Source: Acidobacteriota bacterium
GTDB taxonomy: Bacteria > Acidobacteriota > Aminicenantia > Aminicenantales > Saccharicenantaceae
DNA length: 64,000 bases
Assembly (NCBI GenBank): GCA_029569255.1
Contig: JAKQUO010000028.1
Coordinates: 1,335 to 65,334, forward strand
Direction: 5' to 3'
In this document: one piece after another, positions 2,930 to 30,583 of the stretch
Layout of the letters: each line of letters begins with the position of its first letter
Position numbering within the stretch: position 1 is the first letter of the stretch
Notes under the pieces: model-generated
What the model was told of the DNA's origin: nothing
Seen by the model: only the letters and a program-made list of their open reading frames with translations
Databases searched by the model: none
Program-made: the position numbers and the translations under genes

Positions 2930-2991
2930 GGCTTCCACGCGGATACGTTTTCGTTTAAGATGGGAGGACCGCAAGGCGGCGTGATCGCGCG

Positions 2992-6313: not shown

Positions 6314-6358
6314 AGGCCCGGCAGGCCCGCGGGACGCCGGGAACGAAAGGGGCCGGAC

Positions 6359-13014: not shown

Positions 13015-14181
13015 TCAATCGACGTAGAGCAGGAAGCCCTTGAGGTAGGCCGTCTCGGGATGGCAGATATTGACCGGGTGATCGAAGGCCTGGCGGTGCT
13101 TCTGGAGGATCCGGACCCGCCTTCCCGCTTCGCGGGCCGCCTGGAAGACGACCTGCTGGAAGAGGGTCTCGTCGACGAAATGGGAGCAGGAGAAGGTCAG
13201 GACCAGGCCGGGGGTCCGGATCCGCTGGAAGGCCAGGCGGTTGATGTCCTTGTAGCCCCGGCAGGCGGCCACGACGTCGGCCCGCTTCTTGGCGAAGGCC
13301 GGCGGATCGAGGATGATGTAGTCGTGGTCGAGGCCCGGCTCGCGGAGGAACTCGAAGACGTCGGCCGTGAAGAACAGGCCGGCGTCCGAAGGGAGGCCGT
13401 TGAGCTCGAAGTTCTCCCGGGCCAGGGCCAGGGCCTCCTCCGACGAATCGACCGAATCGGCCCGGACGGCGCCGCCGAGAAGGGCCGAGACCGAGAACGA
13501 TCCCGTGTAGGAAAAAGCGTTCAGGACCCGGCGCCCCGCCGCGGTCTCGCGGACGAGCCGCCGGGACCCGCGCTGGTCCAGGTAGAAGCCCGTTTTCTGG
13601 CCATGGGCCAGGCCCGCCCAGAACGGCACGCCGTCCTCCAGGATGCGGACCCGGTCGACGGGCTGGCCGAAGAGGACGGCCTCGAACGGCTCCAGGCCTT
13701 CTTCCCGCCGGGCCGGGAGGTCGGACCTCTCGAGGATGGCGCGGGGTTCCAGGGCCGCTTGCAGGGCCTCGAGGACGAGCGGCTTGAGCTTCTCCATGCC
13801 CAGGGTCGCGATCTGGAGGACGAGGACGTCGTCGTAGAGGTCGGCGACGAGCCCGGGCAGCCCGTCGCCCTCGGCGTTGACCAGCCGGACGGCGCTGGTC
13901 GAGGCGGGGTCGAAGAAGGCCTTCCGAAGGGCCAAGGCCCGCCCGAGGCTGGCCCGGACCGCCGCGTCCGGAGGCTCCGTCCCGAAGGCGATCATCCGTC
14001 CGGCGATGGCGCTCTTGCGGTTGAAATAGGCGTGACCGAGAAGCTCGCCTCCGGCGCTGCGGACCGCGAGGACCTCCCCGTCCTCGAAATCGGGCAGGTC
14101 GCGGACCGCGCCCGAGAAGATCCAGTGATGACGGTTCTTGACCGCCTTGTCGCGGCCGGGCTTGAGGACGGCGGCGTTCAC
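13015..14181 (-). CDS. rlmI: 23S rRNA (cytosine1962-C5)-methyltransferase RlmI
   Basis: N-terminus VNAAVLKPGRDKAVKNRHHWIFSGAV matches the E. coli RlmI N-terminus ([24 protein letters not shown]). GTG start preceded by GGAGGGG. PUA plus class I SAM-methyltransferase body. The upstream portion of the track ORF is artefact. Confidence 0.75.
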   Translation of the reverse strand: MNAAVLKPGRDKAVKNRHHWIFSGAVRDLPDFEDGEVLAVRSAGGELLGHAYFNRKSAIAGRMIAFGTEPPDAAVRASLGRALALRKAFFDPASTSAVRLVNAEGDGLPGLVADLYDDVLVLQIATLGMEKLKPLVLEALQAALEPRAILERSDLPARREEGLEPFEAVLFGQPVDRVRILEDGVPFWAGLAHGQKTGFYLDQRGSRRLVRETAAGRRVLNAFSYTGSFSVSALLGGAVRADSVDSSEEALALARENFELNGLPSDAGLFFTADVFEFLREPGLDHDYIILDPPAFAKKRADVVAACRGYKDINRLAFQRIRTPGLVLTFSCSHFVDETLFQQVVFQAAREAGRRVRILQKHRQAFDHPVNICHPETAYLKGFLLYVD

Positions 14182-14615
14182 CCGCCCCTCCCCGGCCTCT
14201 CTCGTTCCTCGGCGGCCAGGCGGGCCAGCATCCGGACGACCGGGCGGTCCGGCTTGGAGAAAAGGGATTCGTCCATCTCGGCCGGGGCCAGCCAGCGGAC
14301 CTCGTCGTGGTCGGTCGGACGGAGGTCGCCCCCGAGAAGCTCGGCCCGATGGACGATGAGCTCGAAGCTCGCGTGCGCCCCGGCGAAGGGGACCGAGCAA
14401 AGGAACTCTCCGACCCGGGCCCGGACCCCCAGCTCCTCCTCGAGCTCGCGCCGCAGCCCTTTTTCCGGCGCCTCCCCGTCCTCGAGCTTGCCGCCCGGGA
14501 ACTCCCAGAGGCCCTCGGCCACGAGCCCCGCCTTCCGCCTGGCGCACAGGACCTTGCCGTCCCGCTCGATGACCGCCGCCGTCACCTTCCTTGTCTTGCT
14601 CTCTTCGGCTTCCAT
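14178..14615 (-). CDS. NUDIX hydrolase (MutT-like)
   Basis: Nudix box GLWEFPGGKLEDGEAPEKGLRRELEEELG. Start MEAEESK (M17 of the track ORF). Its stop overlaps the rlmI start. Confidence 0.7.
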   Translation of the reverse strand: MEAEESKTRKVTAAVIERDGKVLCARRKAGLVAEGLWEFPGGKLEDGEAPEKGLRRELEEELGVRARVGEFLCSVPFAGAHASFELIVHRAELLGGDLRPTDHDEVRWLAPAEMDESLFSKPDRPVVRMLARLAAEERERPGRGG

Positions 14616-14860: not shown

Positions 14861-16306
14861 ATGAAAGTCGCATTCCTCGCCTCCGAAGTCAACCCTTACG
14901 CCAAAACGGGCGGGCTGGCCGATGTGGCCGGGTCCCTGCCCAAATTCCTCGTCCGCCAGGGGGCCGAAGTCCGGACCTTCATGCCCCTCTACCGGGAGGT
15001 CCGGAAGAAGAGCCTGCCGCTCGAGCCGGTCCTCGACAAGGCCAAACTGACCATGGGGGGCCGGTCCATCCCCTACGCCGTCTTCGCCCACCGGGCCGAG
15101 GGCGTCACGACGTTCTTCGTCGACCACCCCGGCTATTTCGACCGGGACGCCCTCTACGGCACGCCGGCCGGCGATTACCCCGACAACGCCGAGCGCTTCG
15201 GCTTCTTCTCCCGGGCCGCCCTGGAGACGATGCGGGCCGTCGGCTTCCGGCCGGCGATTGTCCACGCCCACGACTGGCAGGCGGCGGCCGCCGTCGCCTA
15301 CCTCAGGTTCGTCCATGCCGGCGACCCCTTCTTCTCCGGCGCCCGCTCGGTCTTCACCATCCACAATCTGGCCTACCAGGGGCTGTTCGGGAAGGAGGTC
15401 CTGCCGGCGATCGGGCTCCCCGAGTCCCTCTTCAACATGAACGACCTCGAATTCTTCGGCCAGGTCAACACCCTCAAGGCCGGCATCCTCTACTCGACGG
15501 CGGTCACCACCGTCAGCCCGCGCTACAGCCGGGAGATCCAGACGCCCGAGTTCGGCTGCGGCCTGGACGGGCTGCTGCGGAGCCGGGCCGGCGTCCTCCA
15601 CGGCATCCTCAACGGCGTCGACTACCAGGACTGGGACCCGGCCACGGACCCCCTCATCCCGCGCAACTACGCCCCCGGCGACCTGGCCGGCAAGAAGGCC
15701 TGCCGCGAAGAGCTCGCCCGCCTCTTCGGCCTGGCTCTCCAGCCCGGCCGTCCGCTGGCCGGCATGGTGACGCGCCTGGCCGGGCAGAAGGGCCTCGACA
15801 TCGTCTGCGAGGCCCTCGAAGCGCTCCTCGGCCAGGGCCTGTCGCTCGTCATCCTGGGCACGGGCGACCGGAAGATCCAGGACTTCCTCGCCGCCGCCCA
15901 GAAAAAGCACGCCGCCCAGTTCGGGCTGAAGATCGCCTTCGACGAGAAGATCGCCCGCACGATCTACGCCGGGAGCGACATCTTCCTCATCCCCTCGCGC
16001 TACGAGCCCTGCGGCCTGACCCAGATGTACGCGATGAGGTACGGGACGGTCCCCGTCGTCCGGGCCACCGGCGGCCTCGACGACAGCGTCGAGGAGTTCG
16101 ACGCCGCGGCGGCGGCGGGCAACGGCTTCAAGTTCGCCGAGGCCGCTCCCGGGCCCCTGCTCGAGGCCTCGGCCCGGGCCGTCGCGGCCTTCGGCCGCCC
16201 GGCCGACTGGAGCGCGCTCGTCCGCAACGCCATGTCCGCGGACTTCTCCTGGGGCCGCTCGGCCGAGACCTACCTCGGCCTCTACGAGATGATCGCCGCT
16301 TCTTGA
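14861..16306 (+). CDS. glgA: Glycogen synthase (ADP-glucose type, GT5)
   Basis: MKVAFLASEVNPYAKTGGLADVAGSLP (KTGGL motif). 481 aa. Confidence 0.9.
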   Translation: MKVAFLASEVNPYAKTGGLADVAGSLPKFLVRQGAEVRTFMPLYREVRKKSLPLEPVLDKAKLTMGGRSIPYAVFAHRAEGVTTFFVDHPGYFDRDALYGTPAGDYPDNAERFGFFSRAALETMRAVGFRPAIVHAHDWQAAAAVAYLRFVHAGDPFFSGARSVFTIHNLAYQGLFGKEVLPAIGLPESLFNMNDLEFFGQVNTLKAGILYSTAVTTVSPRYSREIQTPEFGCGLDGLLRSRAGVLHGILNGVDYQDWDPATDPLIPRNYAPGDLAGKKACREELARLFGLALQPGRPLAGMVTRLAGQKGLDIVCEALEALLGQGLSLVILGTGDRKIQDFLAAAQKKHAAQFGLKIAFDEKIARTIYAGSDIFLIPSRYEPCGLTQMYAMRYGTVPVVRATGGLDDSVEEFDAAAAAGNGFKFAEAAPGPLLEASARAVAAFGRPADWSALVRNAMSADFSWGRSAETYLGLYEMIAAS

Positions 16307-16307
16307 C

Positions 16308-17336
16308 CTAAGGCTGCTTCAGGAACTGGGCCGCGGTCTCCGGCGGGACCGGATTGATGTAGAACCCCGTCCCCCATTCGAACCCGGCCATCTTCGTCAG
16401 GACGGGGATGATCTCCACGTGCCAGTGCGACTTCAGGTGGATGTCCGGCCAGCTCTTGAGCGAGAGGGCCGGGTTGGGGGCCTGGTGGAGGACCATGTTG
16501 AAGGGCGGGTCGCCGACCGTTTCCTTGAGCCGGGTCAGGACGGCCTTCAGGATTCCGGCCAGGGCCAGGAGCTCGTCCTCGCCGGCGTCGGTGAAGAAGG
16601 CCGAGTGCCGCCGCGGGAAGACGGCCATCTCGAACGGCGAGCGCGAAGCGTAGGGCGCGATGGCCGTGAAATGGGCGTTGCGGGCCACCAGCCTCTTCCC
16701 CGCCGCCTCCTCCTCCCGCAGGACGCGGCAGAAGACGCACTCCTTGAAGGTCCGGAACATCCGGTCGGCGCCGTAGATTTCCTCCTTGATGCGCTTGGGG
16801 ACGATCGGCGTCGCCACCAGCTGCGAGTGCGGGTGGCTCAGCGAGGCCCCGGCCTCCCTGCCCTTGTTCTTGAAGATCTGGACGTACTGGTAATGGAGGT
16901 CGCGTTCGATGGCCCGGATCCGGAGCTGGAAGACCCTGAACACGTCGCGGATATGGGCGACGGCGAGGTCCCCGAGCTCGAGGGCGTGGTCCGGGTTCTC
17001 GATGACGACCTCGTGGACGCCGCGGCCCTCCATCGACTGGAAGGCGCCCTCCGTGGCCCGGGGCGGCGGCGGACCGGGGGTCAGGGCCGGGAACTTGTTG
17101 GGCACGACCCGGACCGTCCAGCCCGGCGTGTCGGGGCCCGTCCCCGCTTTCCGCAGGGCGAAGACCTCGGGCGGCGTCTTCGCCTCGTTGCCTTCGCAGA
17201 ACGGACAGAACCCGGGCGCCTCCGGGGGCGGGGCCGCGCCTCCGGCCGGCCGGAAGTCGTCGGGGCGCTTGCTGCGTTCGGTGGCGATGATGACCCATCG
17301 CCCGCTGACCAGGTCTTTTCTCAGCTCCGACATCAT
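16308..17336 (-). CDS. Galactose-1-phosphate uridylyltransferase-family (GalT/HIT-like) nucleotidyltransferase
   Basis: CPFCEGNE zinc knuckle and HPHSQ active-site motif. The ATGATG start overlaps the stop of the receiver gene. Its position in a glycogen operon makes an NDP-glucose phosphorylase/uridylyltransferase role plausible. Confidence 0.75.
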   Translation of the reverse strand: MMSELRKDLVSGRWVIIATERSKRPDDFRPAGGAAPPPEAPGFCPFCEGNEAKTPPEVFALRKAGTGPDTPGWTVRVVPNKFPALTPGPPPPRATEGAFQSMEGRGVHEVVIENPDHALELGDLAVAHIRDVFRVFQLRIRAIERDLHYQYVQIFKNKGREAGASLSHPHSQLVATPIVPKRIKEEIYGADRMFRTFKECVFCRVLREEEAAGKRLVARNAHFTAIAPYASRSPFEMAVFPRRHSAFFTDAGEDELLALAGILKAVLTRLKETVGDPPFNMVLHQAPNPALSLKSWPDIHLKSHWHVEIIPVLTKMAGFEWGTGFYINPVPPETAAQFLKQP

Positions 17337-17689
17337 TCCCCCAGCAGCTGCTTGATCCGGGCCTTGAGCTCTTCGAGCGAGGCGGACTTGACGACGTAGG
17401 CGTCGGCCGCCCAGGTCATGAAGTCCTCCTTGTAGCTCTGGTAGGCCGAGTTGATGATGATGGGGATGTCCTTGCGCAGGCCCATGATCTCGGTGATGAG
17501 CTCGATGCCGTTCTTGCCCGGCATGCGGATGTCGGTGACGATGAGGTCGAAGGACCCCTCCCGGAGGGCGGCCAGGGCCGCCTCCGCGTCCGTCACCGCC
17601 GTGATCTCGTAGCCCTCTCCCCGGAGCTCCTCCTCGTAGAGCAGGCAGAGGGGCTTCTCGTCCTCGACGAGCAGGATCCTTTTTGTCAT
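17333..17689 (-). CDS. Single-domain response regulator (CheY-like receiver)
   Basis: MTKRILLVEDEKPLCLLYEEELRGEGYEITAVTDAEAALAALREGSFDLIVTDIRMPGKNG (D..D...K receiver signature). 118 aa. The upstream part of the track ORF is artefact. Confidence 0.85.
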   Translation of the reverse strand: MTKRILLVEDEKPLCLLYEEELRGEGYEITAVTDAEAALAALREGSFDLIVTDIRMPGKNGIELITEIMGLRKDIPIIINSAYQSYKEDFMTWAADAYVVKSASLEELKARIKQLLGE

Positions 17690-19035
17690 GACGTCGACTC
17701 CCTTTCCTGGCTGATGAATTGCAATTTGAAGACCGAGCCCCGGCCGACCCGGCTGAGGACCTCGACCGACCCGCCGCAGGTGTCCATGACCCGCTTGATG
17801 AACGGCAGGCCCAGGCCCATGCCCTTGTCCTTGGTCGTGAAGAAGGGCTGGAAGAGATGGGCCTTGGCCGGATTGGTGAGGCCCCGGCCCGTGTCCCGGA
17901 CGGACAGGGCGAAGGCCGTCGGGGACCTTCGGTAGGTGCGGACCGAGATGGTCCCGCCCGGCGGGGTGGCGTCGAAGGCGTTGTCGATGAGATTGCGCAG
18001 GACCTCGCCGAAGGAGGTGGGGTCGCAGAGGATCTTGGGCGGGCAGGCGTCCACCTTGGCGTCGAGCGTGTACGCCTTGGCCCGGCTCTGGACCTGCGGG
18101 CTGTCCAGCACCTCGGCGATGGCCGGCGCGGGATCGAAGAAGACGGGCTCCTTGAGGCTGACCTTGAGGAAGTGGCCCATCTGGTAGATGATGACCTCGA
18201 GCCGGCGGATCTCGTCCCGGATGATGTTCAGGTTGCGGACCCTCTTCTCCTCCGGCAGGTCGGGCTTGAGGAGCTGGTCGGTGAAGCCGCCGATGGCCAC
18301 GATGGGATTGCGGAGCTGGTGGGTGACGAACATGGCCATCTCGCCCATGGCCGCCATCTTCTCCATGTTGAGGAGCCGGCGGTGGAGCGTCGTCGAGTGG
18401 ATGTAGTTGCCGGCCATCAGGCCGCAGATGCCGGCCAGCTTGATGTCGGAGGGCGAGATCGGCGTCCGGGTGATGGCGTTGTCGAGGATGATCTCGCCGA
18501 CGACGTCGTCGCCGGCGACGAGCGGGACGCAGAGGAACTCGTCGACGCCGATGATGTTGAGGAAGCGGCGGTCGACCCGGGGCTCCTGGGCCGCCTCGCG
18601 GACGTGGAGGATCTCCTTGCGGCCGGCCACGGAGGCCGGGATGAGGGCCTTCGGGTCGTTGGCCGGGTAGACCAGGCCCCGGAGGCGGGCGCTGAGCGTG
18701 TCCGCGTTCTTGTTGACCAGGGCCCGGTTGTGCTCGAGGATCTCGACATAGCCGATGCCCGGCGTCGACAGGACCTCCCAGATGAGCCCGGCCTCCTCGG
18801 CCGAGCGCGGCCCCAGCCACATCTCGCCTCTGAGGCGGTCGTCGCTCTTGAGGAAGAGCATGGCCCGGTTGAAGCCGACGCCCGAGCCCGAGGTCAGGGC
18901 GGTCAGGACGACGAGGAGGTTGTCCTCGAGCGAGAAGGGCTGGAAGAAGCTCTGGGAGATGATGGACAGGAGCATCAGCTCGCGGGGCGCCTCCCGCTCG
19001 AAGCTCGGGGAGAGGATGTTGTAGGTCTCGATCAT
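17686..19035 (-). CDS. Sensor histidine kinase with GAF sensor domain (GAF, HisKA, HATPase_c)
   Basis: H-box FVTHQLRNP. N/G boxes (NLIDNAFDAT, RDTGRGL, GMGLGL). Start MIETYN at complement 19033..19035 overlaps the glgC stop (ATGA). Its stop overlaps the receiver start. Confidence 0.8.
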   Translation of the reverse strand: MIETYNILSPSFEREAPRELMLLSIISQSFFQPFSLEDNLLVVLTALTSGSGVGFNRAMLFLKSDDRLRGEMWLGPRSAEEAGLIWEVLSTPGIGYVEILEHNRALVNKNADTLSARLRGLVYPANDPKALIPASVAGRKEILHVREAAQEPRVDRRFLNIIGVDEFLCVPLVAGDDVVGEIILDNAITRTPISPSDIKLAGICGLMAGNYIHSTTLHRRLLNMEKMAAMGEMAMFVTHQLRNPIVAIGGFTDQLLKPDLPEEKRVRNLNIIRDEIRRLEVIIYQMGHFLKVSLKEPVFFDPAPAIAEVLDSPQVQSRAKAYTLDAKVDACPPKILCDPTSFGEVLRNLIDNAFDATPPGGTISVRTYRRSPTAFALSVRDTGRGLTNPAKAHLFQPFFTTKDKGMGLGLPFIKRVMDTCGGSVEVLSRVGRGSVFKLQFISQERESTS

Positions 19036-20216
19036 TCGGAGGACCATCCCTTGGGGACCACCCGGACGCCGGCCCGGCTCGTCTTGAAGTTGCGGGCGTC
19101 CTTGTCGGCGTCGAAACCGATCTCGAAGCGTTCGGGGACCGCGGCGGACTTGTCGATGATGACCTTGCGCAGCCGGGCGCCCCGGAGGACGCGGACGTTG
19201 TCGAAGACGATCGAGTCGACGATGTCCGCTCCGGGCTCGACCCGGACGCCGGCGCCGACGATCGAGTTGACGATCCGGCAGTCGCTGAACGAGCCGCCGG
19301 CGCCGACGATCGAGTTCCGGATGTCCCCGCCGGCCACGAACGTCGGCGGGTACTGGGGCTTGTAGGTCCGGACCGGCCAGGCCGGGTCGCGCAGGATGAG
19401 CGGCGGCGCCGGCGAGAGGAAGGCCATGTTGGCCTCCCAGTAGGCGTCGATCGTGCCGATGTCCTCCCAGTAGTCGTCGAACGTGTAGGCGAAGACGCGG
19501 TGGCTCTTGATGAGGGCCGGGATGATGTCGCGGCCGAAGTCGTGCGTGCTCCTTGACGACCGGGCGTCCCGGAGCAAGGCCTTGATCAGGACCGCCGTCT
19601 TGAAGAGATAGACGCCCATGGAGATGAGGCTTTTGCCCGCGTCCCACGGCGTCGCGAAGGGTTTCTTGGGCTTCTCCATGAACTCGACGATCCGCCGCTC
19701 GCCGTCGACGCCGATGACGCCGAAGCGGGAGGCCTCGCTCACGGGGATGGTCCGGGTCATGATCACGGCGTCCGCGTCCGCCTGGCCGAAGAAGAGGAGC
19801 AGCTTGCGGTAGTCGGAGCTGTAGATGTGGTCGCCGGACAGGACCAGGACGGCCTCGGGGCTCTCCTGCTGGATGGTGTAGATGTTCTGGAGGACGGCGT
19901 CGGCCGTGCCCGCGTACCAGCTGTCGCTGACCCGGCCCTGGGCCGGGAGGGACAGGATGTAGTCGCCGCTCTCGGCATGGAAGATGTTCCAGCCGTTGAA
20001 GATGTGGCGGTCGAGGGAGAGCGACTTGTACTGGGTCAGGAGGGCGATCCGCCGCAGGCCCGAGTTCAGGGCGTTGGACAGGCTGAAGTCGATGATCCGG
20101 TAGGCCCCGAGGAAGGGGACGGACGGCTTGGCCCGGTCGCGCGTCAGCGGATAGAGACGCTCGCCCTTGCCCCCGCAGAGGACCATGGTCAGGGTCTTCT
20201 TAGATAACAGTTCCAT
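19032..20216 (-). CDS. glgC: Glucose-1-phosphate adenylyltransferase
   Basis: MVLCGGKGERLYPLTRDRAKPSVPFLGAYRIIDFSLSN plus C-terminal left-handed beta-helix repeats. An alternative start 30 nt downstream is possible. Confidence 0.85.
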   Translation of the reverse strand: MELLSKKTLTMVLCGGKGERLYPLTRDRAKPSVPFLGAYRIIDFSLSNALNSGLRRIALLTQYKSLSLDRHIFNGWNIFHAESGDYILSLPAQGRVSDSWYAGTADAVLQNIYTIQQESPEAVLVLSGDHIYSSDYRKLLLFFGQADADAVIMTRTIPVSEASRFGVIGVDGERRIVEFMEKPKKPFATPWDAGKSLISMGVYLFKTAVLIKALLRDARSSRSTHDFGRDIIPALIKSHRVFAYTFDDYWEDIGTIDAYWEANMAFLSPAPPLILRDPAWPVRTYKPQYPPTFVAGGDIRNSIVGAGGSFSDCRIVNSIVGAGVRVEPGADIVDSIVFDNVRVLRGARLRKVIIDKSAAVPERFEIGFDADKDARNFKTSRAGVRVVPKGWSSE

Positions 20217-21855
20217 CGGGCATCACGATCTCTTTGAAGATGCGGTCGTCGGACTCGAAGGCCTCGAGGAGCGAGACCTCGGCGGGGCCGAGGGCCCGGC
20301 CGGCCTCGAGCCAGCCGAGGAGGGTCAGGGCCCTGTCGAAGTGCTCGGCGGCCCGGCTCTCGGCGTAGTCGCGGGCCGACCGGGTCGAGACGAGGAACGG
20401 CCAGTCGGAGCTCTCGAGCAGGTATTTCTCGCGGAAGAACTGGCGGAGGAGCCGCCGGTCGAGGCCGGCCAGCCGGGGCGTCAGGGCCGCCGCGGCCGCC
20501 TCGACGCGGTAGATCTTCTCCCAGATCCAGGCCGTGTCCCGGTTGAGCCAGTTCCCGTGGAAGCCGCCCTGGCCCCAGGACCCCTCGGGGAGGGCGACGG
20601 ACGCGGCCGGCGGCATGGCCTCGAGCGCGGCCCCGGCGGTCGCCGGCCGGACCGGGCCCGCCTGGAGCTTCTTGACGACCCGGTAGAGCCACTCGGGCCC
20701 TTCGAACCACCAGTGGCCGAAGAGCTCGGTGTCGTAGAGGGCGGCGACCGTCCCCGCCTCCCTCGCCGCGAGCGTCGCCTCGAGGGCCGAGACGAAGTGG
20801 GCGGCGTGCTCTTCCGCCCGGGCCGCGGTCCGGTCCGGCTCGTAAGGCTCTTTGAGGCCCAGGTCGGCCTCGCCCGAGGTGACGCGCCAGTAGCGCATCC
20901 CCCCCGGGAAGCGCTTCTTGTGGAACTCCAGGTAGTCGCCGTCGCCGGGATAGCCCGTGTCCCGGCTCCAGACCTGCGCGCCGGAGACGTCGTCCCGGGC
21001 GAAGAACGGGAGTCCCGAGGGAAGGGCCGCGTAGGGGGAATAGGGGTCGCGGGACGGCGCCTCGGCCGGCCGGACGGCCTCCCGGGCCTTCTCCCAGAGG
21101 AGCCTCAAGCCGGGAAAACGGTCGAGGTAGACGCCCTCGGTCTCCCCGCCCCTGAGAAGGTGCGCGTCGACGAAGAAATAGCGGAGGCCCTCCTGGCCCA
21201 GGATCTCGTCGAGGCCGAGCCGGGGATGGGCGTCGCCGTCGCCGACCGGGCTCTTCCAGGCGTAGCCCGGCCGGTAGGCGCACTCGGGGAGCCAGAAGCC
21301 GAGGGCCTCCCGGCCGAAATATCTCTTGTACGTGTGGAGGCCCTGGCGGACCTGCTGGCGGACCGTCTCGTCCCGCGAAAGAAGGGCGAGATAGGCGTGC
21401 GTCGCCGCCGAGGTCAGGACTTCGATGTGGCCGCGGTCCTGGAGGGAGCGGAACGCGCCGAGAATGTCCCCGCCGGCGCGGCCGTGGAAGCTCGCCCGGA
21501 GCTCCCGGTACCAGCCCTCCCAGAACGCCGCGAGGTCCCGGAGGCCGCTCTCCCCCGCGCGCTCGAAGTGGGCCCGGTCGTCGGCCGCGGCGTCCTCCTT
21601 CATCCTCAGGTACGCGTCGAAGCCCCCGGCGAAGACGGGGTCCTTGAGCTGCTCCATGAGGACCGGCGTGAAGCTGACGCTCGTCCGGGCGGAGATGCCC
21701 TCGGCGGCCAGGCGCTCGAAGACGTCGAGGAGCGGCAGATAGGTCTCCGCGGCGGCCTCGTAGAGCCAGTCCATCCCGTGCGGCCAGCTGCCGTGGTCCA
21801 GGACGTACGGGATGTGGCTGTGGAGGACGAGCGAGAAATACTTACCGGGCATCAC
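20200..21855 (-). CDS. GH57-family glycoside hydrolase (1,4-alpha-glucan branching enzyme type)
   Basis: 551 aa. N-terminal FSLVLHSHIPYV and the GH57 catalytic region. Overlaps neighbouring genes by 14-17 nt. Confidence 0.8.
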   Translation of the reverse strand: MMPGKYFSLVLHSHIPYVLDHGSWPHGMDWLYEAAAETYLPLLDVFERLAAEGISARTSVSFTPVLMEQLKDPVFAGGFDAYLRMKEDAAADDRAHFERAGESGLRDLAAFWEGWYRELRASFHGRAGGDILGAFRSLQDRGHIEVLTSAATHAYLALLSRDETVRQQVRQGLHTYKRYFGREALGFWLPECAYRPGYAWKSPVGDGDAHPRLGLDEILGQEGLRYFFVDAHLLRGGETEGVYLDRFPGLRLLWEKAREAVRPAEAPSRDPYSPYAALPSGLPFFARDDVSGAQVWSRDTGYPGDGDYLEFHKKRFPGGMRYWRVTSGEADLGLKEPYEPDRTAARAEEHAAHFVSALEATLAAREAGTVAALYDTELFGHWWFEGPEWLYRVVKKLQAGPVRPATAGAALEAMPPAASVALPEGSWGQGGFHGNWLNRDTAWIWEKIYRVEAAAAALTPRLAGLDRRLLRQFFREKYLLESSDWPFLVSTRSARDYAESRAAEHFDRALTLLGWLEAGRALGPAEVSLLEAFESDDRIFKEIVMPDGTVI

Positions 21856-23815
21856 TTTCCCTGAGCGCGACCGACAAGCGTTGCGTGGTGCCGGGGGCCA
21901 GCTCCAGCGGCCAGACCGGACAGAGACAATAACCCTGGTGGATTATATCAAAACCCTCCTCGGATTGGGAGAGCGTCCGCAGGGGGAACGCCCACAGGGC
22001 CGCGGCCCCGGCCGGCTCGAAGAGGAGCGCGCCACCGTAGAGGGACACCCGGCCGTCGTCCCGGAGCTCGTACTCGTGGGGAAAGGCCAGCAGGTTCCAC
22101 TCGGAGCCGAAGAGAAGGGAGAGAGGCCGGCCGGCCCCGTTCTCGATCTCGATGTCGACGCGGAGCGCCCCGCCGGCGCTGGCGATCGTCTTGCGGAGGA
22201 CGATGGGCCGGCCGCCCTCCTCCCCCCGGACCGAGCCGCGCCGCTCCAGCCGGAGCGACGGGCCCGCGATGGCCGGCGTGAAAGCGCCGCCGACGAAATC
22301 GCCCAGCTCCTCGAAGGCGGCCGAGCGGAACGCCTCGGCCGTCGTGCCCGGGGCGAAGACATGGTCGATGAGCGAGAGGCGCGGATAGAGGTCGTAGCGC
22401 AGGAGCTCGGCGGTGTCCGGAGGGAGCCTCTTGGCGAGCTCGTGGATGCTCTTCCCCGTCCCGCCCTCCCCTTCCCCGTCCTTCGCGCCCTGCCGGTGGT
22501 AGGCCTCCGGCCGCCGGCCGAGGACGTCGGAGATGTTCCGCGAGGCGGGCCGGTGGTCGATCTCGACCAGGGCGCCGCCGGCGGAGGGCTTGACCATCAG
22601 GCCGAACGCGGCGTCCCGGTAGACCAGCTCCCGGAACCCGTCCCCGTCGTAGTCGAGCGTGATCCAGCCCGGCGGGTCGGGCGTCCGCTTCTCGGCCTCG
22701 AGGAGATGGTGATAGGCGGCCTCCCGGAGATGGGGCAGGTAGAGCCCCCCGAAGACGCCGTGCCAGTACGGGTCGTTGCACTGGCCCCGGTAGAGGTGCC
22801 TCAGCCCCTCTCCGGGCGCCCCGGCGGCGCGGAGGCCGTCCGAGACCATGACCATGCGCTTGTGAAGCCGGTTGGCCTCGGGATACTTGCGCAGGAAGTC
22901 CCGGAAGAACCCGCCCCGGAGGAAGCGCCGGGCCTCGGGCGGGACGCCGGCCTTGAGCCGGGCGAGCGCCTCCTGGTCCTCGGGTTCGAGGACCCACTCC
23001 GTCATCTCCTCGTACGACGCCGGGGGCAGGTAGATCCGCGCGGCCGGGGGGTTCGTGTCCAGGAACTCGGAGAAGGAGACCGTCCGGATGCCCCGGTCTT
23101 CGACATGGGCCAAGAAGGACCGCAGCCAGCCGCCGTCGTAGACCCGGGCGCGGGTGCCGGGCCAGAGCCCGAACTTCTCCCCGTCGTCGCCGAGGATGGC
23201 CGTCCCCCCGGCGTCGTGGATGGCCCGCAGCCGGGCGTCGACGTCGCCGAGGGGATGGAACGGGACGAGGTAGCGGAGCGCCTTGTCGACCGGGAAGACC
23301 CGGAGCGTCCGGCCCTCCTCCTCGGTGATGTAGCTCGCGCCGAGGTCGCGGACGCCGGCGCAGCGGAAGTGCTCCTCGTCGAGGAGCGTGTATTCGAGGC
23401 CGGCCTCGGCCAGGACCTTGGGGAGATGGGGCTCCCAGACGCGCTCCGTGAGCCAGAGGCCGCGCGGCCGCTGGCCGAAGCTCTCGCGGATGAAGTCGTT
23501 CATCATCCTCAGCTGGCCGGCCCGGTCGGCCTCGGGGATGAGGGACAGGACCGGCTCGTAGAAGCCGCCGCCGAGGAGCTCGACCTGGCCGCGGCCGGCG
23601 AGCTCCCGCACGAGGTCCCAGCAGCCCCTCTCGTTCTTCTCCATGTGCTCCCAGAGCGGTCCGGAGAAGTGGAGGGCGAAGCGGAACCCGGGATGGCCGG
23701 CCAGGACCTCGAGGAACGGCCGGTAGCAGGCGTCGAAGGCCGCCTTGACGACGTGATCGAAGTTGCCGACGGGCTGGTGGTTGTGGACCGCGAACAGGAA
23801 GAGGCGGCGGCTCAT
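21842..23815 (-). CDS. GH57-family glycoside hydrolase (alpha-amylase / 4-alpha-glucanotransferase type)
   Basis: 657 aa. LFLFAVHNHQPVGNF N-terminus typical of GH57. Confidence 0.8.
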   Translation of the reverse strand: MSRRLFLFAVHNHQPVGNFDHVVKAAFDACYRPFLEVLAGHPGFRFALHFSGPLWEHMEKNERGCWDLVRELAGRGQVELLGGGFYEPVLSLIPEADRAGQLRMMNDFIRESFGQRPRGLWLTERVWEPHLPKVLAEAGLEYTLLDEEHFRCAGVRDLGASYITEEEGRTLRVFPVDKALRYLVPFHPLGDVDARLRAIHDAGGTAILGDDGEKFGLWPGTRARVYDGGWLRSFLAHVEDRGIRTVSFSEFLDTNPPAARIYLPPASYEEMTEWVLEPEDQEALARLKAGVPPEARRFLRGGFFRDFLRKYPEANRLHKRMVMVSDGLRAAGAPGEGLRHLYRGQCNDPYWHGVFGGLYLPHLREAAYHHLLEAEKRTPDPPGWITLDYDGDGFRELVYRDAAFGLMVKPSAGGALVEIDHRPASRNISDVLGRRPEAYHRQGAKDGEGEGGTGKSIHELAKRLPPDTAELLRYDLYPRLSLIDHVFAPGTTAEAFRSAAFEELGDFVGGAFTPAIAGPSLRLERRGSVRGEEGGRPIVLRKTIASAGGALRVDIEIENGAGRPLSLLFGSEWNLLAFPHEYELRDDGRVSLYGGALLFEPAGAAALWAFPLRTLSQSEEGFDIIHQGYCLCPVWPLELAPGTTQRLSVALRESDAR

Positions 23816-23833
23816 CCCGGCTCCTCGGGGCCC

Positions 23834-24913
23834 TCAGCGGTGCAGGAAGCAGCGTTCCGAATCGACCTCGCCCGGCTTGCGGGTGGCGATCATGGCCAGG
23901 CCGAGCTCGTCGGCCTTGTCTATGACCTCCCGGTCCCTGACCGATCCCAGCGGGTAGATGATGGCGCTGATGCCGTTCCTTCCGGCCAGCTCGACGACGT
24001 CGGGGAAAGGCATGAACGCGTCGGAGGCGAGGACGCATCCCTCCGGCCCGTAGCCGCGCCGGGAGAGCCGGATCGCGTCCTCGGCCGAGTCGACGCGGCT
24101 CCGCTGCCCGGAGCCGATGCCGTGGGTCTTGTCCCCCGTGCCGATGACGACCGCGTTGGACCGGGTGAAGCAGGCCACCGTCCAGTTGAAGAGGGCCGCC
24201 CGCACCTCCTCGGGGCCGGGCCGCCTCTTGGAGACGACGTCCACGGACTCGGCCGAGACGATTTTCGAGTCGAAGCGCTTCTGGACGAGCAGCCCCCCGG
24301 CCACGCGCTTGAGCTCGAGGCCGCTGTCGACCGACGGCGCGTCGAGGGCGGCGCCCATCTTGACGACGCGCAGGACCTTGCGGGCGGCCAGGGCCTCCAG
24401 GGCATCGGCGGCGAAGTCGGGCGCGTAGACGACCTCGACGTTGCGCGGGCTCTCGGCGAGGAGCCGGGCCAGCGCCGCGGTGACCCGGTAGCCGACGACG
24501 ACGACGCCGCCGAAGTTCGACAGCGGGTCGCACCCCCAGGCCTTCTCGAAGGTGGCCACGGCCTCGTCGCCCAGGGCGACCCCGCTCGGCATCTCGTGCT
24601 TGATGATGACGCAGGCCTGGCGTCCCGGGAAGACCTGGACGAGCTTGCGGGCCAGCCGCTGGCCCAGGTCCATGTCCCCGACGTTGATGTAGCTCAGGCC
24701 CTTGGTGCCCTCCTGGAGGACCTCGATCCGGCCCATGTTGGGCCCTTCGGCCCCGACCTCCTGGTAGAAGGCGGCCGGAGTGCCGGGATTCTCGCCGTAG
24801 CGCATCGGGAACTTCTTGACGAACGCGCTCTCGCCGACGCGCAGGGTCTCCGGGAAGTCCTCCCGCACCTTGGCTTGGTACTGGCTCCGGGCCGTCCGTT
24901 CGGGCTCGCTCAT
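23834..24913 (-). CDS. AICAR transformylase-only PurH (AICARFT domain without the MGS-like IMP cyclohydrolase domain)
   Basis: 359 aa. C-terminus ASDAFMPFPDVVELAGRNGISAIIYPLGSVRDREVIDKADELGLAMIATR...RCFLHR matches the bacterial PurH C-terminal AICARFT signature (ASDAFFPF...IIQPGGS.RD...FTG.RHFRH). No N-terminal IMPCH domain. Confidence 0.75.
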   Translation of the reverse strand: MSEPERTARSQYQAKVREDFPETLRVGESAFVKKFPMRYGENPGTPAAFYQEVGAEGPNMGRIEVLQEGTKGLSYINVGDMDLGQRLARKLVQVFPGRQACVIIKHEMPSGVALGDEAVATFEKAWGCDPLSNFGGVVVVGYRVTAALARLLAESPRNVEVVYAPDFAADALEALAARKVLRVVKMGAALDAPSVDSGLELKRVAGGLLVQKRFDSKIVSAESVDVVSKRRPGPEEVRAALFNWTVACFTRSNAVVIGTGDKTHGIGSGQRSRVDSAEDAIRLSRRGYGPEGCVLASDAFMPFPDVVELAGRNGISAIIYPLGSVRDREVIDKADELGLAMIATRKPGEVDSERCFLHR

Positions 24914-24917
24914 GGGG

Positions 24918-25649
24918 TCATGTCCTTTCGTGCCGGTTGATGACGCGGACCTCGGACCTGTCCGGCGCGGCCGGATCGAGGAAGACGACGGCGACGGCGA
25001 CGCGGAAGTCCCTGCCCTCGGCGGCCGGCCCGAGGGCGCCGTAGCACGCCGCCGCCGTCTCCGCGGCGGTCGAGCCGACGAGGTCGACGAAGCGCGGCTC
25101 GCCCCGGAAGACCGGCAGCGGGTCGGCGTTCGGGCCTTCGTAGGTCGAGACGAGGCGCCCCTCCCCCGCCCGGAGGCGGACCTCGAAGAAGCTCCGCAGC
25201 GTCTCCCCCGACGGCCCGCGGCGGACGACGCCCAGGGCCGCGCCCGAGGCCGCCAGACAGCCGCTGATCCGCGGCGTGAAGATGGGCGCGTCCGGCTCGA
25301 AGTCCCAGCCGGCGAGGGCGGCCGAGAGGATGGGGACCGGGCCGAGCCCGGGCCGGAGCCAGTCGCGGACGTCGGCCGTCTGCTTGCCGTTCGAGACGGC
25401 GACGCCGCCCGGCGAGAACAAGAGGGCGGGATAGACGAGCAGGTCGACGTTCCCCGTCTTGAGCGCGGCCTCGTCGGTCGGCTCGACCCACACGCCGCCG
25501 TCCCGATGGACGAGCTTCCGGGCCTGGCTCGACGGCGAGCGCCCGGTGATGGCGTAGACGACCGCGGCCCGCCCGGAGGGGGCGGCGCCGATGACGATCA
25601 CCCGGCCGGGATACTCGAGCGCCGCCATGTCGATGCGTTGAGGGTCCAT
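24918..25649 (-). CDS. Archaeal-type IMP cyclohydrolase PurO homologue
   Basis: YPGRVIVIGAAPSGRAAVVYAITGRSPSSQAR and LLVYPALLFSPGGVAVSNGKQTAD align with Methanocaldococcus PurO blocks ([52 protein letters not shown]), as recalled from memory. Confidence 0.6.
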   Translation of the reverse strand: MDPQRIDMAALEYPGRVIVIGAAPSGRAAVVYAITGRSPSSQARKLVHRDGGVWVEPTDEAALKTGNVDLLVYPALLFSPGGVAVSNGKQTADVRDWLRPGLGPVPILSAALAGWDFEPDAPIFTPRISGCLAASGAALGVVRRGPSGETLRSFFEVRLRAGEGRLVSTYEGPNADPLPVFRGEPRFVDLVGSTAAETAAACYGALGPAAEGRDFRVAVAVVFLDPAAPDRSEVRVINRHERT

Positions 25650-25745
25650 CGGAACGTCCTTTCCCGCCTCACTTTAACAGAGCCCCCGCGCGAAGTCAAA
25701 GAGGGCCGGCGGCCGCTTCCGCCCTTGAGCGCCCGGGAGAGATTC

Positions 25746-25774: not shown

Positions 25775-26497
25775 ATGCCCGAAGAATCCTTCCGCGACCC
25801 TCATTTCATCGAATCCCTGGAAGGCCGGACGCTCCGGATCCTGAGCGAGTACCTCGGCCCCATGGCGCGCCTCGACAAGGCCAAGGTCAACAGCACCATC
25901 CTCTTCCTGGGCTCGGCCAAGGCCAACCCGGCCGACGCCGCCTCCGCCTTCCACCGTTATTATTGGGAGGCCGAGGAGCTGGCCTACCTCCTGGCCAGGT
26001 GGGCCATCTCGGTCAAGGCGCCGAAGGGCAAGGACTTCGTCGTCTGCACGGGCGCCGGGCCGGGGATCATGGAGGCGGCCAACCGGGGCGCGGCCCGGGC
26101 CGGCGGCAAGACGATCGGCATGAACATCTCCCTCCCCCAGCCCCAGCCGTCCAACCCCTACATCACCCCGGAGCTGTCCTTCTCCTTCCATTACTTCTTC
26201 ATGCGCAAGTTCTGGCTGACCTACAAGGCCAAGGCGATCATCGCCTTCCCCGGCGGCTTCGGCACGCTCGACGAGTTCTTCGAGATCGCGACGCTCCTCC
26301 AGACGAGCAAGATCTCGAAGCGGGAGATGGCCCTCGTCCTCTACGGCGGCGACTACTGGCGGGACCTGATCGATTTCGACTCGATGGCCGCCAAGGGCGC
26401 CATCTGCGCCGACGACCTCAAGCTCTTCCGCGTCTGCTCGACGCCGCGCCAGGCATTCGCCTATCTCAAGAAGCGCCTGTCGGAGACCCTTGCCTGA
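25775..26497 (+). CDS. LOG-family protein (TIGR00730 Rossmann fold; cytokinin-riboside-5'-monophosphate phosphoribohydrolase-like)
   Basis: GGKTIGMNISLP and PGGFGTLDEFFE motifs. 240 aa. Confidence 0.8.
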   Translation: MPEESFRDPHFIESLEGRTLRILSEYLGPMARLDKAKVNSTILFLGSAKANPADAASAFHRYYWEAEELAYLLARWAISVKAPKGKDFVVCTGAGPGIMEAANRGAARAGGKTIGMNISLPQPQPSNPYITPELSFSFHYFFMRKFWLTYKAKAIIAFPGGFGTLDEFFEIATLLQTSKISKREMALVLYGGDYWRDLIDFDSMAAKGAICADDLKLFRVCSTPRQAFAYLKKRLSETLA

Positions 26498-28174: not shown

Positions 28175-30583
28175 TCATCTCCCCCTTTCTTCTTCCCCGG
28201 GCCGGGAGCCCGCCGGCCCGGGGGCCTTCTCCAGGTCCTCGAGGAGCTGGACGAGCACGACGTGCTCGCCCCCGGGCACGCCGAACTTGCGGGCCCGGCC
28301 GTGAAAGACGTCCGCGACCCGGCCGTCGACGAGGAGCTGGTACTTGCCCCGCTTGAGGAGCGTCAGCGACACCTTGACGTCCTTGAGGGCGTTGATCTCG
28401 AACGACACCTCCGCCTCGCTGTAGAGGAACTTCCGGACGACCGCGCCGCCGCCGACGGAGACGACCGTCACGCCTTCCTCCCTCAGCACGGTCGCCCCGC
28501 CCGAGGCCTCGACCTCGTAGTGGCGGCCCTGGATGAGGACGCGGGAGAGCCGGGCCCTCTTCTCCGGTTTGAGGATGCCGAAGCGGAAGCCCTCGTGGGG
28601 CGTGAAGTCGAGGCACTCCTCGACCGCGATCAGGGCGGCCAGGGGGCCGCCGCTCGCGAACCTCTGGCCGGCGGCCGCGCCGGTCAGGGAATCGAAGGCC
28701 TCGGGCGAGAGCCCGAAGCTCTTGAAGCTCCGCATGAACATCTCGGCGCTCTTCCGGGCGAACTCCGAAGCGACGACGTCCTGGCGGCAGGCCTTGAGGC
28801 CCTGATAGACGAGGTAGTTCGCCCACGGGCGGACGGCGCCGCGCCAGGCCTCCTGGCTTTCCGGCCGGAAGGCCGGGTCGTCGCGGGAGACCGACGGGAT
28901 GACGTAGTCCCCCCAGAACTGGCGGGGGTCGAGCAGCCGCTTGAGCATGCGCTGGACCCGGGCCTCGTCGGGGATGCCGGCGAGAAGGGTGAAGAAGGCC
29001 GAGGCGGCCTTGTGGACGGAGAACCGTCCGTCCCAGTGACGGTCGAAATAGAAGCCTTCCCGCTCGTTCCACAGCTGGCTGTTGACGAGGCCCTTCACCC
29101 TCCTGTACTGGTCCCGGTAGCGCTCGGCGTCGGCCGCCCGGCCCAGGACGGCGGCCATCTCGGCGAGCGACCAGGCGTCCAGGGCGTAAAGGGCGTTGAG
29201 GTCGAGGCAGTTCATGGCCAGCGTGCCGGTCTCCTCGTTGAATGGGGCGTCGTCCCAGTTGGGCAGATCGTCCTGGCCGGATTCCCAACCGGCCCGGATG
29301 CGCCCCGGCGCGTTCTTCTCCCAGGACGGGGCGTCCTTGGCGATGAGGGCCTTGTCGGACCCCCATTCGAGGAGCCCGTCGCCGTTGCCGTCCCGGCGGG
29401 CCGCGCCGCCGGGCTGGGGCGCCGTCCAGAACTCGTGCCAGCGCTGGAGATAGGGATAGGCGCGCCGGAGGAGGTCCAGGTCCCCCAGCCGTTCGAAGAG
29501 CTTCAGGGTGACGTAAGCGCCGACCGGCGGCTGGGACCGGTCGGCGCTCCCTCCCGTCCGGCCGCGCCAGCCCGGCAGGCGGCCGTCCGGGTACTGGGTC
29601 TCGAGGACGGCCGTCAGGGCGTCGACGGCCAGCTTCTGGCTCTCGAGCGAGACGGCCAGGACGTCGAGGAAGGCGTCGGTCCCCTGGATCGTCCAGTCGT
29701 CCGGCCGCCCGTCGGGCCGCGGCATGAGGGCGGCCCGGCCGTCCGGCAGGTAGAGGCGGTGGCGGCCGGGCTGGTAAAGGACGTTCCAGTGGAGGCAGTT
29801 CGTCACGGCCTCGGCGACGCCGGCGTAGAGGCCGAGGAGCTTGACCCTTTTTTGCTCGTAGATGCGGGCTTCCTCGTCGAGAAGGGCGCCGATGTTCGCC
29901 GCGTTCCGGTAGCGGGCCAGGCGGTCGGTGAGCTCGCGGGGCGTCCCCCCGACACAGGCCGCGAAGGCGATGACCCGGTCTCCGTCGGGGAGGTAGGTCC
30001 GGGCGGCGCCGCCGGGGGGAGCGGCGGCCGGCTCGCCGGGGCGGCTCGCCCAGATGAGGTAGAGGGGCCCCCCGGCCGGCCCGACCCGGCCGCTGACTTC
30101 GCCGTCGGGAAGGACGGCGTATTCGCCCTTGAGGCCCCAGGGCACGTAGTGGACGATCGAGACCTTGACGTCGGCCGGGGCGGTGAAGCGGCCGATGACG
30201 ACCCGCTCGTCCCGACGGGACCATTCGAAGGTCAGGGCGTCCCGCCGCGGCGCCGGCTTCATCAGGACGGGCGTCGCCGCGCCGAGCTTGAAGGGCAGCC
30301 CGAGGTCGAAACGGGCGCGGGCGAACAGCCCGTCGGGCGACTGGGGGCCGAGCTCGGACGCGAGGTAGTAGAGATCGGCGCCTTCGGCCGTCTCCTCGCC
30401 CCGTTCGACCCGGACGAGGAAGGCGTAGGCGCAGTCCGCCGACGGCGCGAGGACCAGGCCGGGCCAGCCGGCCGCGTCGAGCGAGCCGATGCAGGTCGCC
30501 TTCCAGGGATAGAAGATCTCGGGCGAGAGGACGAGGGCGGCGGCGGCCAGGAGCGCGGCGGCGAGCGCAGTCCTCTTCAGCAT
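28175..30583 (-). CDS. Secreted GH63-like (alpha/alpha)6-barrel glycoside hydrolase (processing alpha-glucosidase I / YgjK-like)
   Basis: 802 aa. Signal peptide MLKRTALAAALLAAAALVLS. Long (alpha/alpha)6 glucosidase-like region. Family assignment is made from overall sequence character, not a single motif. Confidence 0.6.
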   Translation of the reverse strand: MLKRTALAAALLAAAALVLSPEIFYPWKATCIGSLDAAGWPGLVLAPSADCAYAFLVRVERGEETAEGADLYYLASELGPQSPDGLFARARFDLGLPFKLGAATPVLMKPAPRRDALTFEWSRRDERVVIGRFTAPADVKVSIVHYVPWGLKGEYAVLPDGEVSGRVGPAGGPLYLIWASRPGEPAAAPPGGAARTYLPDGDRVIAFAACVGGTPRELTDRLARYRNAANIGALLDEEARIYEQKRVKLLGLYAGVAEAVTNCLHWNVLYQPGRHRLYLPDGRAALMPRPDGRPDDWTIQGTDAFLDVLAVSLESQKLAVDALTAVLETQYPDGRLPGWRGRTGGSADRSQPPVGAYVTLKLFERLGDLDLLRRAYPYLQRWHEFWTAPQPGGAARRDGNGDGLLEWGSDKALIAKDAPSWEKNAPGRIRAGWESGQDDLPNWDDAPFNEETGTLAMNCLDLNALYALDAWSLAEMAAVLGRAADAERYRDQYRRVKGLVNSQLWNEREGFYFDRHWDGRFSVHKAASAFFTLLAGIPDEARVQRMLKRLLDPRQFWGDYVIPSVSRDDPAFRPESQEAWRGAVRPWANYLVYQGLKACRQDVVASEFARKSAEMFMRSFKSFGLSPEAFDSLTGAAAGQRFASGGPLAALIAVEECLDFTPHEGFRFGILKPEKRARLSRVLIQGRHYEVEASGGATVLREEGVTVVSVGGGAVVRKFLYSEAEVSFEINALKDVKVSLTLLKRGKYQLLVDGRVADVFHGRARKFGVPGGEHVVLVQLLEDLEKAPGPAGSRPGEEERGR

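Follow-up and report, generated by a model that had tools for sequence, protein, structure and literature searches.

We analysed a stretch of 64,000 nucleotides (nt) from an Acidobacteriota bacterium of the Aminicenantia (assembly GCA_029569255.1, contig JAKQUO010000028.1), hereafter referred to as the window. A tightly packed cluster on its minus strand, positions 16308-25649, brings together enzymes of glycogen metabolism, a soluble histidine kinase, a single-domain response regulator (the receiver) and a nucleotidyltransferase resembling galactose-1-phosphate uridylyltransferase (the GalT-like protein), with two purine biosynthesis genes at its upstream end. The kinase and the receiver are a conserved companion of ADP-glucose genes in many phyla and are not specific to this lineage, a new point that has apparently not been described before.

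Organization of the locus

Eight co-directional open reading frames (ORFs) are present on the minus strand (Table 1), as established from the ORF listing and from direct reading of the junctions; the G+C content of the window is about 70%, and exact protein matches assign it to Candidatus Aminicenantes, a class-level group of Acidobacteriota. No gap in the cluster exceeds 18 nt, and five stops overlap the following start. The PurO-like and AICAR formyltransferase (AICARFT) genes are 4 nt apart and AICARFT ends 18 nt before the first gene of glycoside hydrolase family 57 (GH57). The two GH57 genes overlap by 11 nt, the second GH57 gene and glgC overlap by 17 nt, and ATGA overlaps are found at the glgC/kinase, kinase/receiver and receiver/GalT-like junctions. 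The last of these reads GAATGATGTCG, which agrees with the ATGATG given in a first-pass annotation of this DNA made from its sequence alone. The start of the kinase at ATGA is backed by conserved N-termini among its relatives. Three other public assemblies with independent gene calls have the same eight gene lengths, the same order and the convergent glgA, and the cluster is therefore not an artefact of assembly or of ORF calling. The eight genes at 16308-25649, their tight packing and stop/start overlaps, and the glgA gene converging on them at a distance of 1 nt from the GalT-like stop, had all been listed in the first-pass annotation and were recovered here; every one of its gene labels is backed by Pfam and NCBIfam profiles, and the two-component pair with a stand-alone, output-less receiver that it described is confirmed by Pfam matches and intact motifs.

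Table 1. Features of the cluster and its immediate flanks (positions in the window).
Feature	Length (amino acids)	Position	Strand	Basis
PurO-like inosine monophosphate (IMP) cyclohydrolase	243	24918-25649	-	Pfam IMP_cyclohyd
5-Aminoimidazole-4-carboxamide ribonucleotide (AICAR) formyltransferase, PurH C-terminal domain only	359	23834-24913	-	Pfam AICARFT_IMPCHas
GH57 (first), 4-alpha-glucanotransferase-type	657	21842-23815	-	Pfam, PDB 1K1W
GH57 (second), glycogen branching enzyme	550	20200-21852	-	Pfam GH57 + BE_C
GlgC, glucose-1-phosphate adenylyltransferase	394	19032-20216	-	TIGR02091, Pfam
Soluble GAF-HisKA-HATPase histidine kinase	449	17686-19035	-	Pfam, motifs
Single-domain response regulator (receiver)	118	17333-17689	-	Pfam Response_reg, motifs
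Class I GalT/HIT-family nucleotidyltransferase, At5g18200-like, candidate ADP-glucose phosphorylase	342	16308-17336	-	Pfam, NCBIfam
GlgA, ADP-glucose-type glycogen synthase	481	14861-16306	+	TIGR02095
LOG/TIGR00730-family protein, divergent from purO		25775-26497	+	Pfam, NCBIfam; context only
Sigma-70-like promoter candidate, TTGACT-17-TAAAGT with TG		25671-25699	-	Consensus match only

From 14.5 to 27.5 kb of the window the minus strand has a single promoter candidate of sigma-70 type, situated upstream of purO at a distance of 22 nt from its ATG. Terminator-like sites are as frequent as chance predicts (5 against an expected 4.8), folding of the GalT/glgA junction is no better than that of shuffled sequences (z -0.88), and an Rfam scan of the cluster detected no RNA elements; in particular, no ZTP riboswitch precedes purO. 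Judging from the packing of the genes and the promoter and terminator scan, the cluster is probably co-transcribed and translationally coupled.

The core of the cluster (16308-23815) together with the convergent glgA is an Aminicenantes glycogen cluster centred on ADP-glucose, and is largely an ordinary operon. GlgC contains the Pfam NTP_transferase and LbH domains and passes TIGR02091 marginally (425.3 bits against a cut-off of 424.9), and GlgA passes TIGR02095 clearly (552.4 bits against 328.45). The first GH57 protein matches Pfam GH57, AmyA-A_glucT_m and AmyA-gluTrfs_C, and the 4-alpha-glucanotransferase of Thermococcus litoralis (1K1W) with an E value of 1e-143. The second matches Pfam GH57 and BE_C and the solved GH57 branching enzymes 5WU7, 1UFA and 3N8T (E about 1e-123); with the NCBIfam branching-enzyme models its E value is 1e-148 and its score is under the equivalog cut-offs (495.7 against 920). 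Genes for glgP, glgX and pgm were not found among the window ORFs scanned.

The signalling pair and the GalT-like protein across phyla

The kinase is soluble, its maximum 19-residue Kyte-Doolittle score being 1.49, and matches Pfam HisKA and HATPase_c. Its motifs are intact, with H239 in THQLRNP, the N-box NLIDNA at 348, and the G1 and G2 motifs DTGRGL at 381 and GMGLGL at 405. The sensor, residues 1-215, is a GAF domain that carries a GFNRA motif (Pfam GAF 25.0 against a cut-off of 22.4). Its AlphaFold model has the GAF fold (predicted local distance difference test score 82, predicted template modelling score 0.84), and was matched by Foldseek with a probability of 1.0 to the GAF domains of PDE6, PDE10A, PtsP and NifA. 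Kinases from other phyla align with the window kinase over their full length, including the sensor motifs ILTxxTxGxGLGFNRAxLFL, GPxSxEEAxxIW and VPL...G....DN. They are longer, 764-877 amino acids, with extra N-terminal GAF or PAS domains, and the minimal form is that of Aminicenantes. The sensor subfamily is of modest size, with 483 cluster representatives at E <=1e-10 among 1.84 billion.

The receiver has the residues of the acidic pocket and the phospho-acceptor Asp (D10 and D53) and the Ser and Lys switch residues (S81 and K101), matches Pfam Response_reg with 81.3 bits and has no output domain. Its best match in the PDB is TrrA of Thermotoga maritima (TM1360; 3A0R and 3A10), with 102 bits against 66 for the next. 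The alpha4-beta5 region, the face by which receivers normally contact their partners, is strongly conserved in 59 receivers from the scanned loci (TAY..YK..F..WaADAYVVKS.DL.ELK), and the window receiver carries the signature AY..YK..F..WAADAYVVKS. By length (about 116-118 amino acids) and by this signature the receiver belongs with the TrrA-type single-domain receivers. The adjacency of the two genes with an ATGA overlap, and their co-occurrence at 33 of 40 loci described below, suggest that kinase and receiver are a cognate pair.

Conservation of the gene order was followed in two scans. The first was seeded with the GalT-like protein, took one genome per species and gave 80 loci, 18 from Aminicenantes and 62 from other phyla. 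The second, over metagenome contigs, was seeded with sensor-domain patterns only, which removed the conditioning on GalT, and also gave 80 loci. The patterns were drawn from a four-sequence alignment, an eight-sequence cross-phylum alignment being too divergent to serve as a seed. Word-indexed searches reached less far, the sensor alone returning only 26 Aminicenantes fragments and the full kinase only relatives with at least 76% identity.

The first-pass annotation had proposed that the synteny be compared in related genomes. Among Aminicenantes loci with the region covered, the order GlgC-kinase-receiver-GalT is kept in 14 of 18 and the convergent glgA in 15 of 18, with GalT-like identity down to 59%, and the adjacency of the purine genes is not kept. 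Beyond this lineage, kinase, receiver and GalT-like protein recur beside glycogen genes in many phyla. Kinase and receiver were found next to GlgC, GalT or GlgA in the GalT-seeded loci of WOR-3, NC10, Planctomycetota, Ratteibacteria, Thermodesulfobacteriota and unclassified metagenome-assembled genomes (MAGs). In the sensor-seeded scan the full-length kinase class comprised 40 loci, 33 with a receiver and 29 with a glycogen gene (18 of 19 for loci of at least 9 kb); the sensor-GGDEF class comprised 38 loci, none with a receiver and two with a glycogen gene (0 of 16 for loci of at least 9 kb). When both scans are combined, 42 loci outside Aminicenantes contain kinase and receiver together; in 16 of them the receiver gene is followed by glgC, and in 20 a GalT-like gene or glgA precedes the kinase gene. 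In the literature we found no two-component system of this type described in a glycogen cluster or operon.

In about 38 of the metagenome loci the GFNRA-type GAF domain is joined to a GGDEF diguanylate cyclase domain (within L081-L160 of our locus numbering; for example L160, 7932-9128, and L135, 7944-9125). Its presence on kinases and on GGDEF proteins indicates a portable sensor module with at least two outputs. The GGDEF protein that adjoins a GalT-like gene in L050 was considered as a relative of the sensor and rejected because the sensor is not shared.

The GalT-like protein contains the motif S167-H168-P169-H170-S171-Q172, which aligns with HSHSQ of Arabidopsis At5g18200 and HPHGQ of E. 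coli GalT; H170 is at the nucleophile position and Q172 completes the HxHxQ motif. Residues C44, C47, H108 and H168 align with E. coli and Arabidopsis positions that we take, from E. coli GalT, to be the Zn ligands. Both Pfam halves are passed (PF01087, 62.0 against 22.1; PF02744, 33.9 against 29.2). The closest solved relative is At5g18200 (1Z84), with 236.7 bits, an E value of 4e-69 and 37% identity over the full length, followed by GalT of Pyrobaculum aerophilum (165.4 bits, 33% identity) and of E. coli (99.2 bits, 28% identity). An insert after the CPFC motif (CPFCxGxE...PE.F) and a C-terminal GFExGTGxYINPV block are common to the GalT-like protein and At5g18200, and neither is present in the P. 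aerophilum or E. coli enzymes. At5g18200 is described as an ADP-glucose phosphorylase and not a GalT, with a Michaelis constant of 7 uM for ADP-glucose (McCoy 2006, cited in PMC6329318 and PMC4136846; bioRxiv 10.64898/2026.09.13.751320), and the plant enzyme is referred to there as phosphorolytic (PMC4136846).

The 62 GalT homologues outside Aminicenantes (46-52% identity) come from Thermotogota, Bacillota, Nitrospirota, Elusimicrobiota, Verrucomicrobiota, Planctomycetota and others. An adjacent glgA on the same strand is found at 26 of these loci, and at least one glycogen gene at 33. The closer match and the shared indels with At5g18200, together with the linkage to glgA, glgC and GH57 genes, make a protein of the ADP-glucose phosphorylase type the best-supported and most likely reading, as far as specificity can be judged from sequence and gene context. 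Our literature search found no paper on a bacterial ADP-glucose phosphorylase. Tandem GalT-like genes were observed in one Planctomycetia MAG (L069; 4551-5564 and 5591-6583).

Possible control of the ADP-glucose node

The locus as a whole is best explained as an ADP-glucose glycogen cluster with a signalling pair embedded in it and with the purine genes as neighbours only, and we give this reading a probability of roughly two in three. The conserved unit is the ADP-glucose node, namely GlgC, GlgA and the GalT-like protein, plus the GAF kinase and the receiver, with the GH57 enzymes as frequent companions. GlgC would make ADP-glucose and GlgA would spend it on alpha-1,4 chains, which the two GH57 enzymes, the branching enzyme and the 4-alpha-glucanotransferase, would remodel. 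The GalT-like protein would most likely exchange the AMP group between glucose-1-phosphate and phosphate (ADP-glucose + phosphate <-> ADP + glucose-1-phosphate), and would serve as a valve on the ADP-glucose pool by returning it to ADP and glucose-1-phosphate.

The signalling pair could be connected to this node as follows. The single GAF domain of the cytoplasmic kinase presumably binds an intracellular metabolite; the kinase would read this metabolic cue and phosphorylate the receiver, and the phosphorylated receiver would act on another protein by direct contact, the most plausible targets being GlgC, GlgA or the GalT-like enzyme, and would thereby set flux through the node. The conserved alpha4-beta5 face of the receiver argues for one conserved partner, and GlgC, GlgA and the GalT-like protein are the sole co-conserved proteins. 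It is nevertheless a tentative proposal, which we put forward as possible and not as probable, that in many phyla the GAF kinase and TrrA-like receiver serve as a regulator dedicated to the ADP-glucose node, with the receiver in its phosphorylated form binding one of these three proteins directly as a post-translational switch of glycogen synthesis.

Several points weigh against the picture drawn above. At 13 of the 42 loci with kinase and receiver the genes after the receiver are unrelated housekeeping genes (an rRNA methyltransferase, DnaA and GlnE, for example), with no conserved extra partner there, and that the receiver controls an enzyme directly is something that we purely infer. The fold matches of the sensor are generic, being to cyclic-nucleotide, PtsP and NifA GAF domains with 11-19% identity, and we therefore name no ligand for it. 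No glycogen gene lies within the fetched flank at 29 of the 62 GalT-like loci. The GalT-like protein passes NCBIfam TIGR00209 (galT_1; 113.9 against a cut-off of 102.1), and 37% identity to At5g18200 leaves its substrate specificity insecure, the 33%-identical protein of P. aerophilum being called GalT. Finally, the promoter scan covered sigma-70-type sites only, and internal promoters may be present inside the coding sequence.

The pair might instead have an indirect, transcriptional effect on the glycogen genes, with the receiver as a phosphorelay intermediate or a phosphate sink that feeds an unlinked DNA-binding regulator. Single-domain receivers are often shuttles or phosphate sinks, as are the Spo0F- and CheY-type proteins, and the loci that end after the receiver with unrelated genes would be consistent with such a function. 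However, none of the clusters examined has a conserved Hpt protein or DNA-binding regulator, and the strong conservation of the alpha4-beta5 face across phyla also speaks against an indirect function, which we consider possible but not probable.

A second alternative concerns the GalT-like protein, which could be a genuine Leloir UDP-glucose:galactose-1-phosphate uridylyltransferase that feeds galactose carbon into glucose-1-phosphate for glycogen. It passes both the Pfam GalP_UDP_transf N- and C-terminal profiles and TIGR00209, its HPHxQ motif and Zn ligands are intact, and it shares a third of its residues with the P. aerophilum GalT. Its score and its shared indels are, however, nearer to those of the ADP-glucose phosphorylase At5g18200, and the partners kept across phyla are glgA, glgC and GH57 genes. 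No galK or galE was found among about 40 window ORFs scanned, nor among 10 sampled neighbours of homologues in loci without glgA. A Leloir function is thus unlikely, and the first-pass annotation, which had noted the missing galK and galE and proposed an NDP-glucose phosphorylase in place of a Leloir enzyme, is supported in both respects.

The prevailing view is that bacteria control glycogen synthesis mainly through allostery of GlgC and through global transcription factors. A kinase/receiver pair that accompanies glgC, glgA and the GalT-like gene in many phyla, most of them uncultured, points to a further, dedicated layer of control. If the receiver does act directly on an enzyme of the node, this would be a previously undescribed regulatory layer on bacterial glycogen metabolism and would provide a physiological role for the functionally orphan TrrA-type receivers. 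The conserved linkage of an At5g18200-like enzyme to glgA suggests that glycogen metabolism in prokaryotes regularly includes phosphorolysis of ADP-glucose, which would then not be a plant curiosity. The current annotation of GalT-like genes is galactose-1-phosphate uridylyltransferase, which may mislead reconstructions of galactose use.

Purine genes, other neighbours and known systems

The PurO-like protein matches Pfam IMP_cyclohyd with 102.6 bits (cut-off 28.1) and falls short of the equivalog cut-offs of NCBIfam (66.6 against 150). AICARFT matches Pfam AICARFT_IMPCHas with 207 bits and covers positions 192-504 of the 510-position PurH model. Nine Aminicenantes relatives have PurO-AICARFT upstream, and all nine carry a gene of about 1.4 kb between AICARFT and the glycogen genes. 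Its product is a secreted M28 peptidase in six of them (L001-L005 and L029) and a third GH57 protein of 441 amino acids in two (L015 and L016); the spacer of L017, about 1.6 kb long, gave a weak partial M28 match only. Six further Aminicenantes relatives have both the M28 and the third GH57 genes, and purine genes are absent from their upstream flank. Neither an M28 peptidase gene nor a third GH57 gene was found in the window. Since the relatives carry a gene between AICARFT and the glycogen genes, the 18-nt AICARFT/GH57 junction is derived in this lineage; it is common to the three other assemblies. Gene order among the relatives indicates that PurO and AICARFT became directly joined to the cluster via loss of the intervening genes and are neighbours, outside the functional module, and here they may possibly be read through into the glycogen genes.

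The LOG/TIGR00730 gene is the conserved partner of PurO. Retention of this divergent pair in L004, L005, L017 and L029 points to a small unit related to purines and separate from the glycogen genes. It is very unlikely that the purine genes are functionally integrated, with PurO-AICARFT heading the transcript and glycogen turnover co-regulated with purine or energy status as the first-pass annotation had supposed: the short AICARFT/GH57 junction, which has no promoter-like or terminator-like site in it and recurs in three other assemblies, would favour this, but an M28 or third GH57 gene intervenes in nine relatives, the purine genes are not upstream in six, no locus outside Aminicenantes pairs purine genes with the glycogen module, and the conserved partner of PurO is the divergent LOG-family gene. 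The 125-nt spacer between the LOG gene and purO contains two back-to-back promoter-like sites, and the LOG/TIGR00730 family has weak similarity to the nucleotide nucleosidase PpnN.

Several other observations were made in the window and its relatives. The third GH57 gene (about 441 amino acids) lies directly upstream of the GH57 glucanotransferase gene in most Aminicenantes relatives (L006, 2216-3541; L007-L016), and recurs near GalT-like genes in many other phyla (L027, L028, L031, L033, L040, L041, L043, L045, L060, L066 and L077-L079). Seven MAGs labelled 'uncultured Eubacteriales bacterium' (L002, L005, L007, L009, L012, L015 and L016) carry the Aminicenantes-type cluster in the same gene order, with GalT-like identities of 59-83%, and from these sequences their labels look wrong. 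Divergent from glgA is a gene for a small MutT-like NUDIX hydrolase (14181-14597, minus strand), the position of which is kept in L161-L163. On the same strand as the cluster, some 2.5 kb past its purO end, lies a gene for a protein of 802 amino acids (28178-30583, minus strand), which has a signal-peptide-like N-terminus and a glycoside hydrolase domain of the MGH1-like/GH63/trehalase type. An amino-acid permease, a RACo-type corrinoid activase and an MttB-family methyltransferase are encoded in a row on the plus strand (1529-7831), and by their families look like a unit for demethylation of quaternary amines or methylamines.

The proteins and gene arrangements of this locus can be compared with four known systems. 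The pairing of a PurO-family cyclohydrolase with a PurH that lacks the N-terminal IMPCH/MGS domain is like the split IMP synthesis of archaeal type. Unlike in that system, the PurO here is bacterial, below cut-off and about 40 amino acids longer than the 199-position model, and the tie of the purine genes to glycogen genes is positional only. The GalT-like protein has the same HxHxQ motif, Zn ligands, insert and C-terminal block as Arabidopsis At5g18200 (PDB 1Z84 and 2H39). That plant enzyme works in the cytosol and is not encoded in an operon, whereas the GalT-like protein is bacterial and is genomically tied to the enzymes that make and use ADP-glucose.

The signalling pair can be compared with ThkA/TrrA of T. 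maritima (TM1359/TM1360). TrrA is an output-less receiver of 116 amino acids with the same TAY..Y....WAADxYVVKS signature, and the kinase core of ThkA is the second-best PDB match for the window kinase (84.7 bits). In contrast, the crystallised ThkA fragment has a PAS domain beside the DHp helix, and the kinase described here has a GFNRA-type GAF domain. The structures of ThkA and TrrA are solved, and we know of no function assigned to them; no paper giving functional data or a physiological role for the pair was found in our literature search. The enzymes of the cluster, finally, are those of the classical GlgC-GlgA pathway with a GH57 branching enzyme (Thermus thermophilus TT1467 or Thermococcus kodakarensis TK1436 type): GlgC and GlgA pass their TIGRFAM cut-offs, and the branching enzyme and the glucanotransferase match solved GH57 enzymes. 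What distinguishes the locus from that pathway is the inversion of glgA relative to the remaining genes, and the presence inside the cluster of a two-component pair and a HIT-family nucleotidyltransferase.

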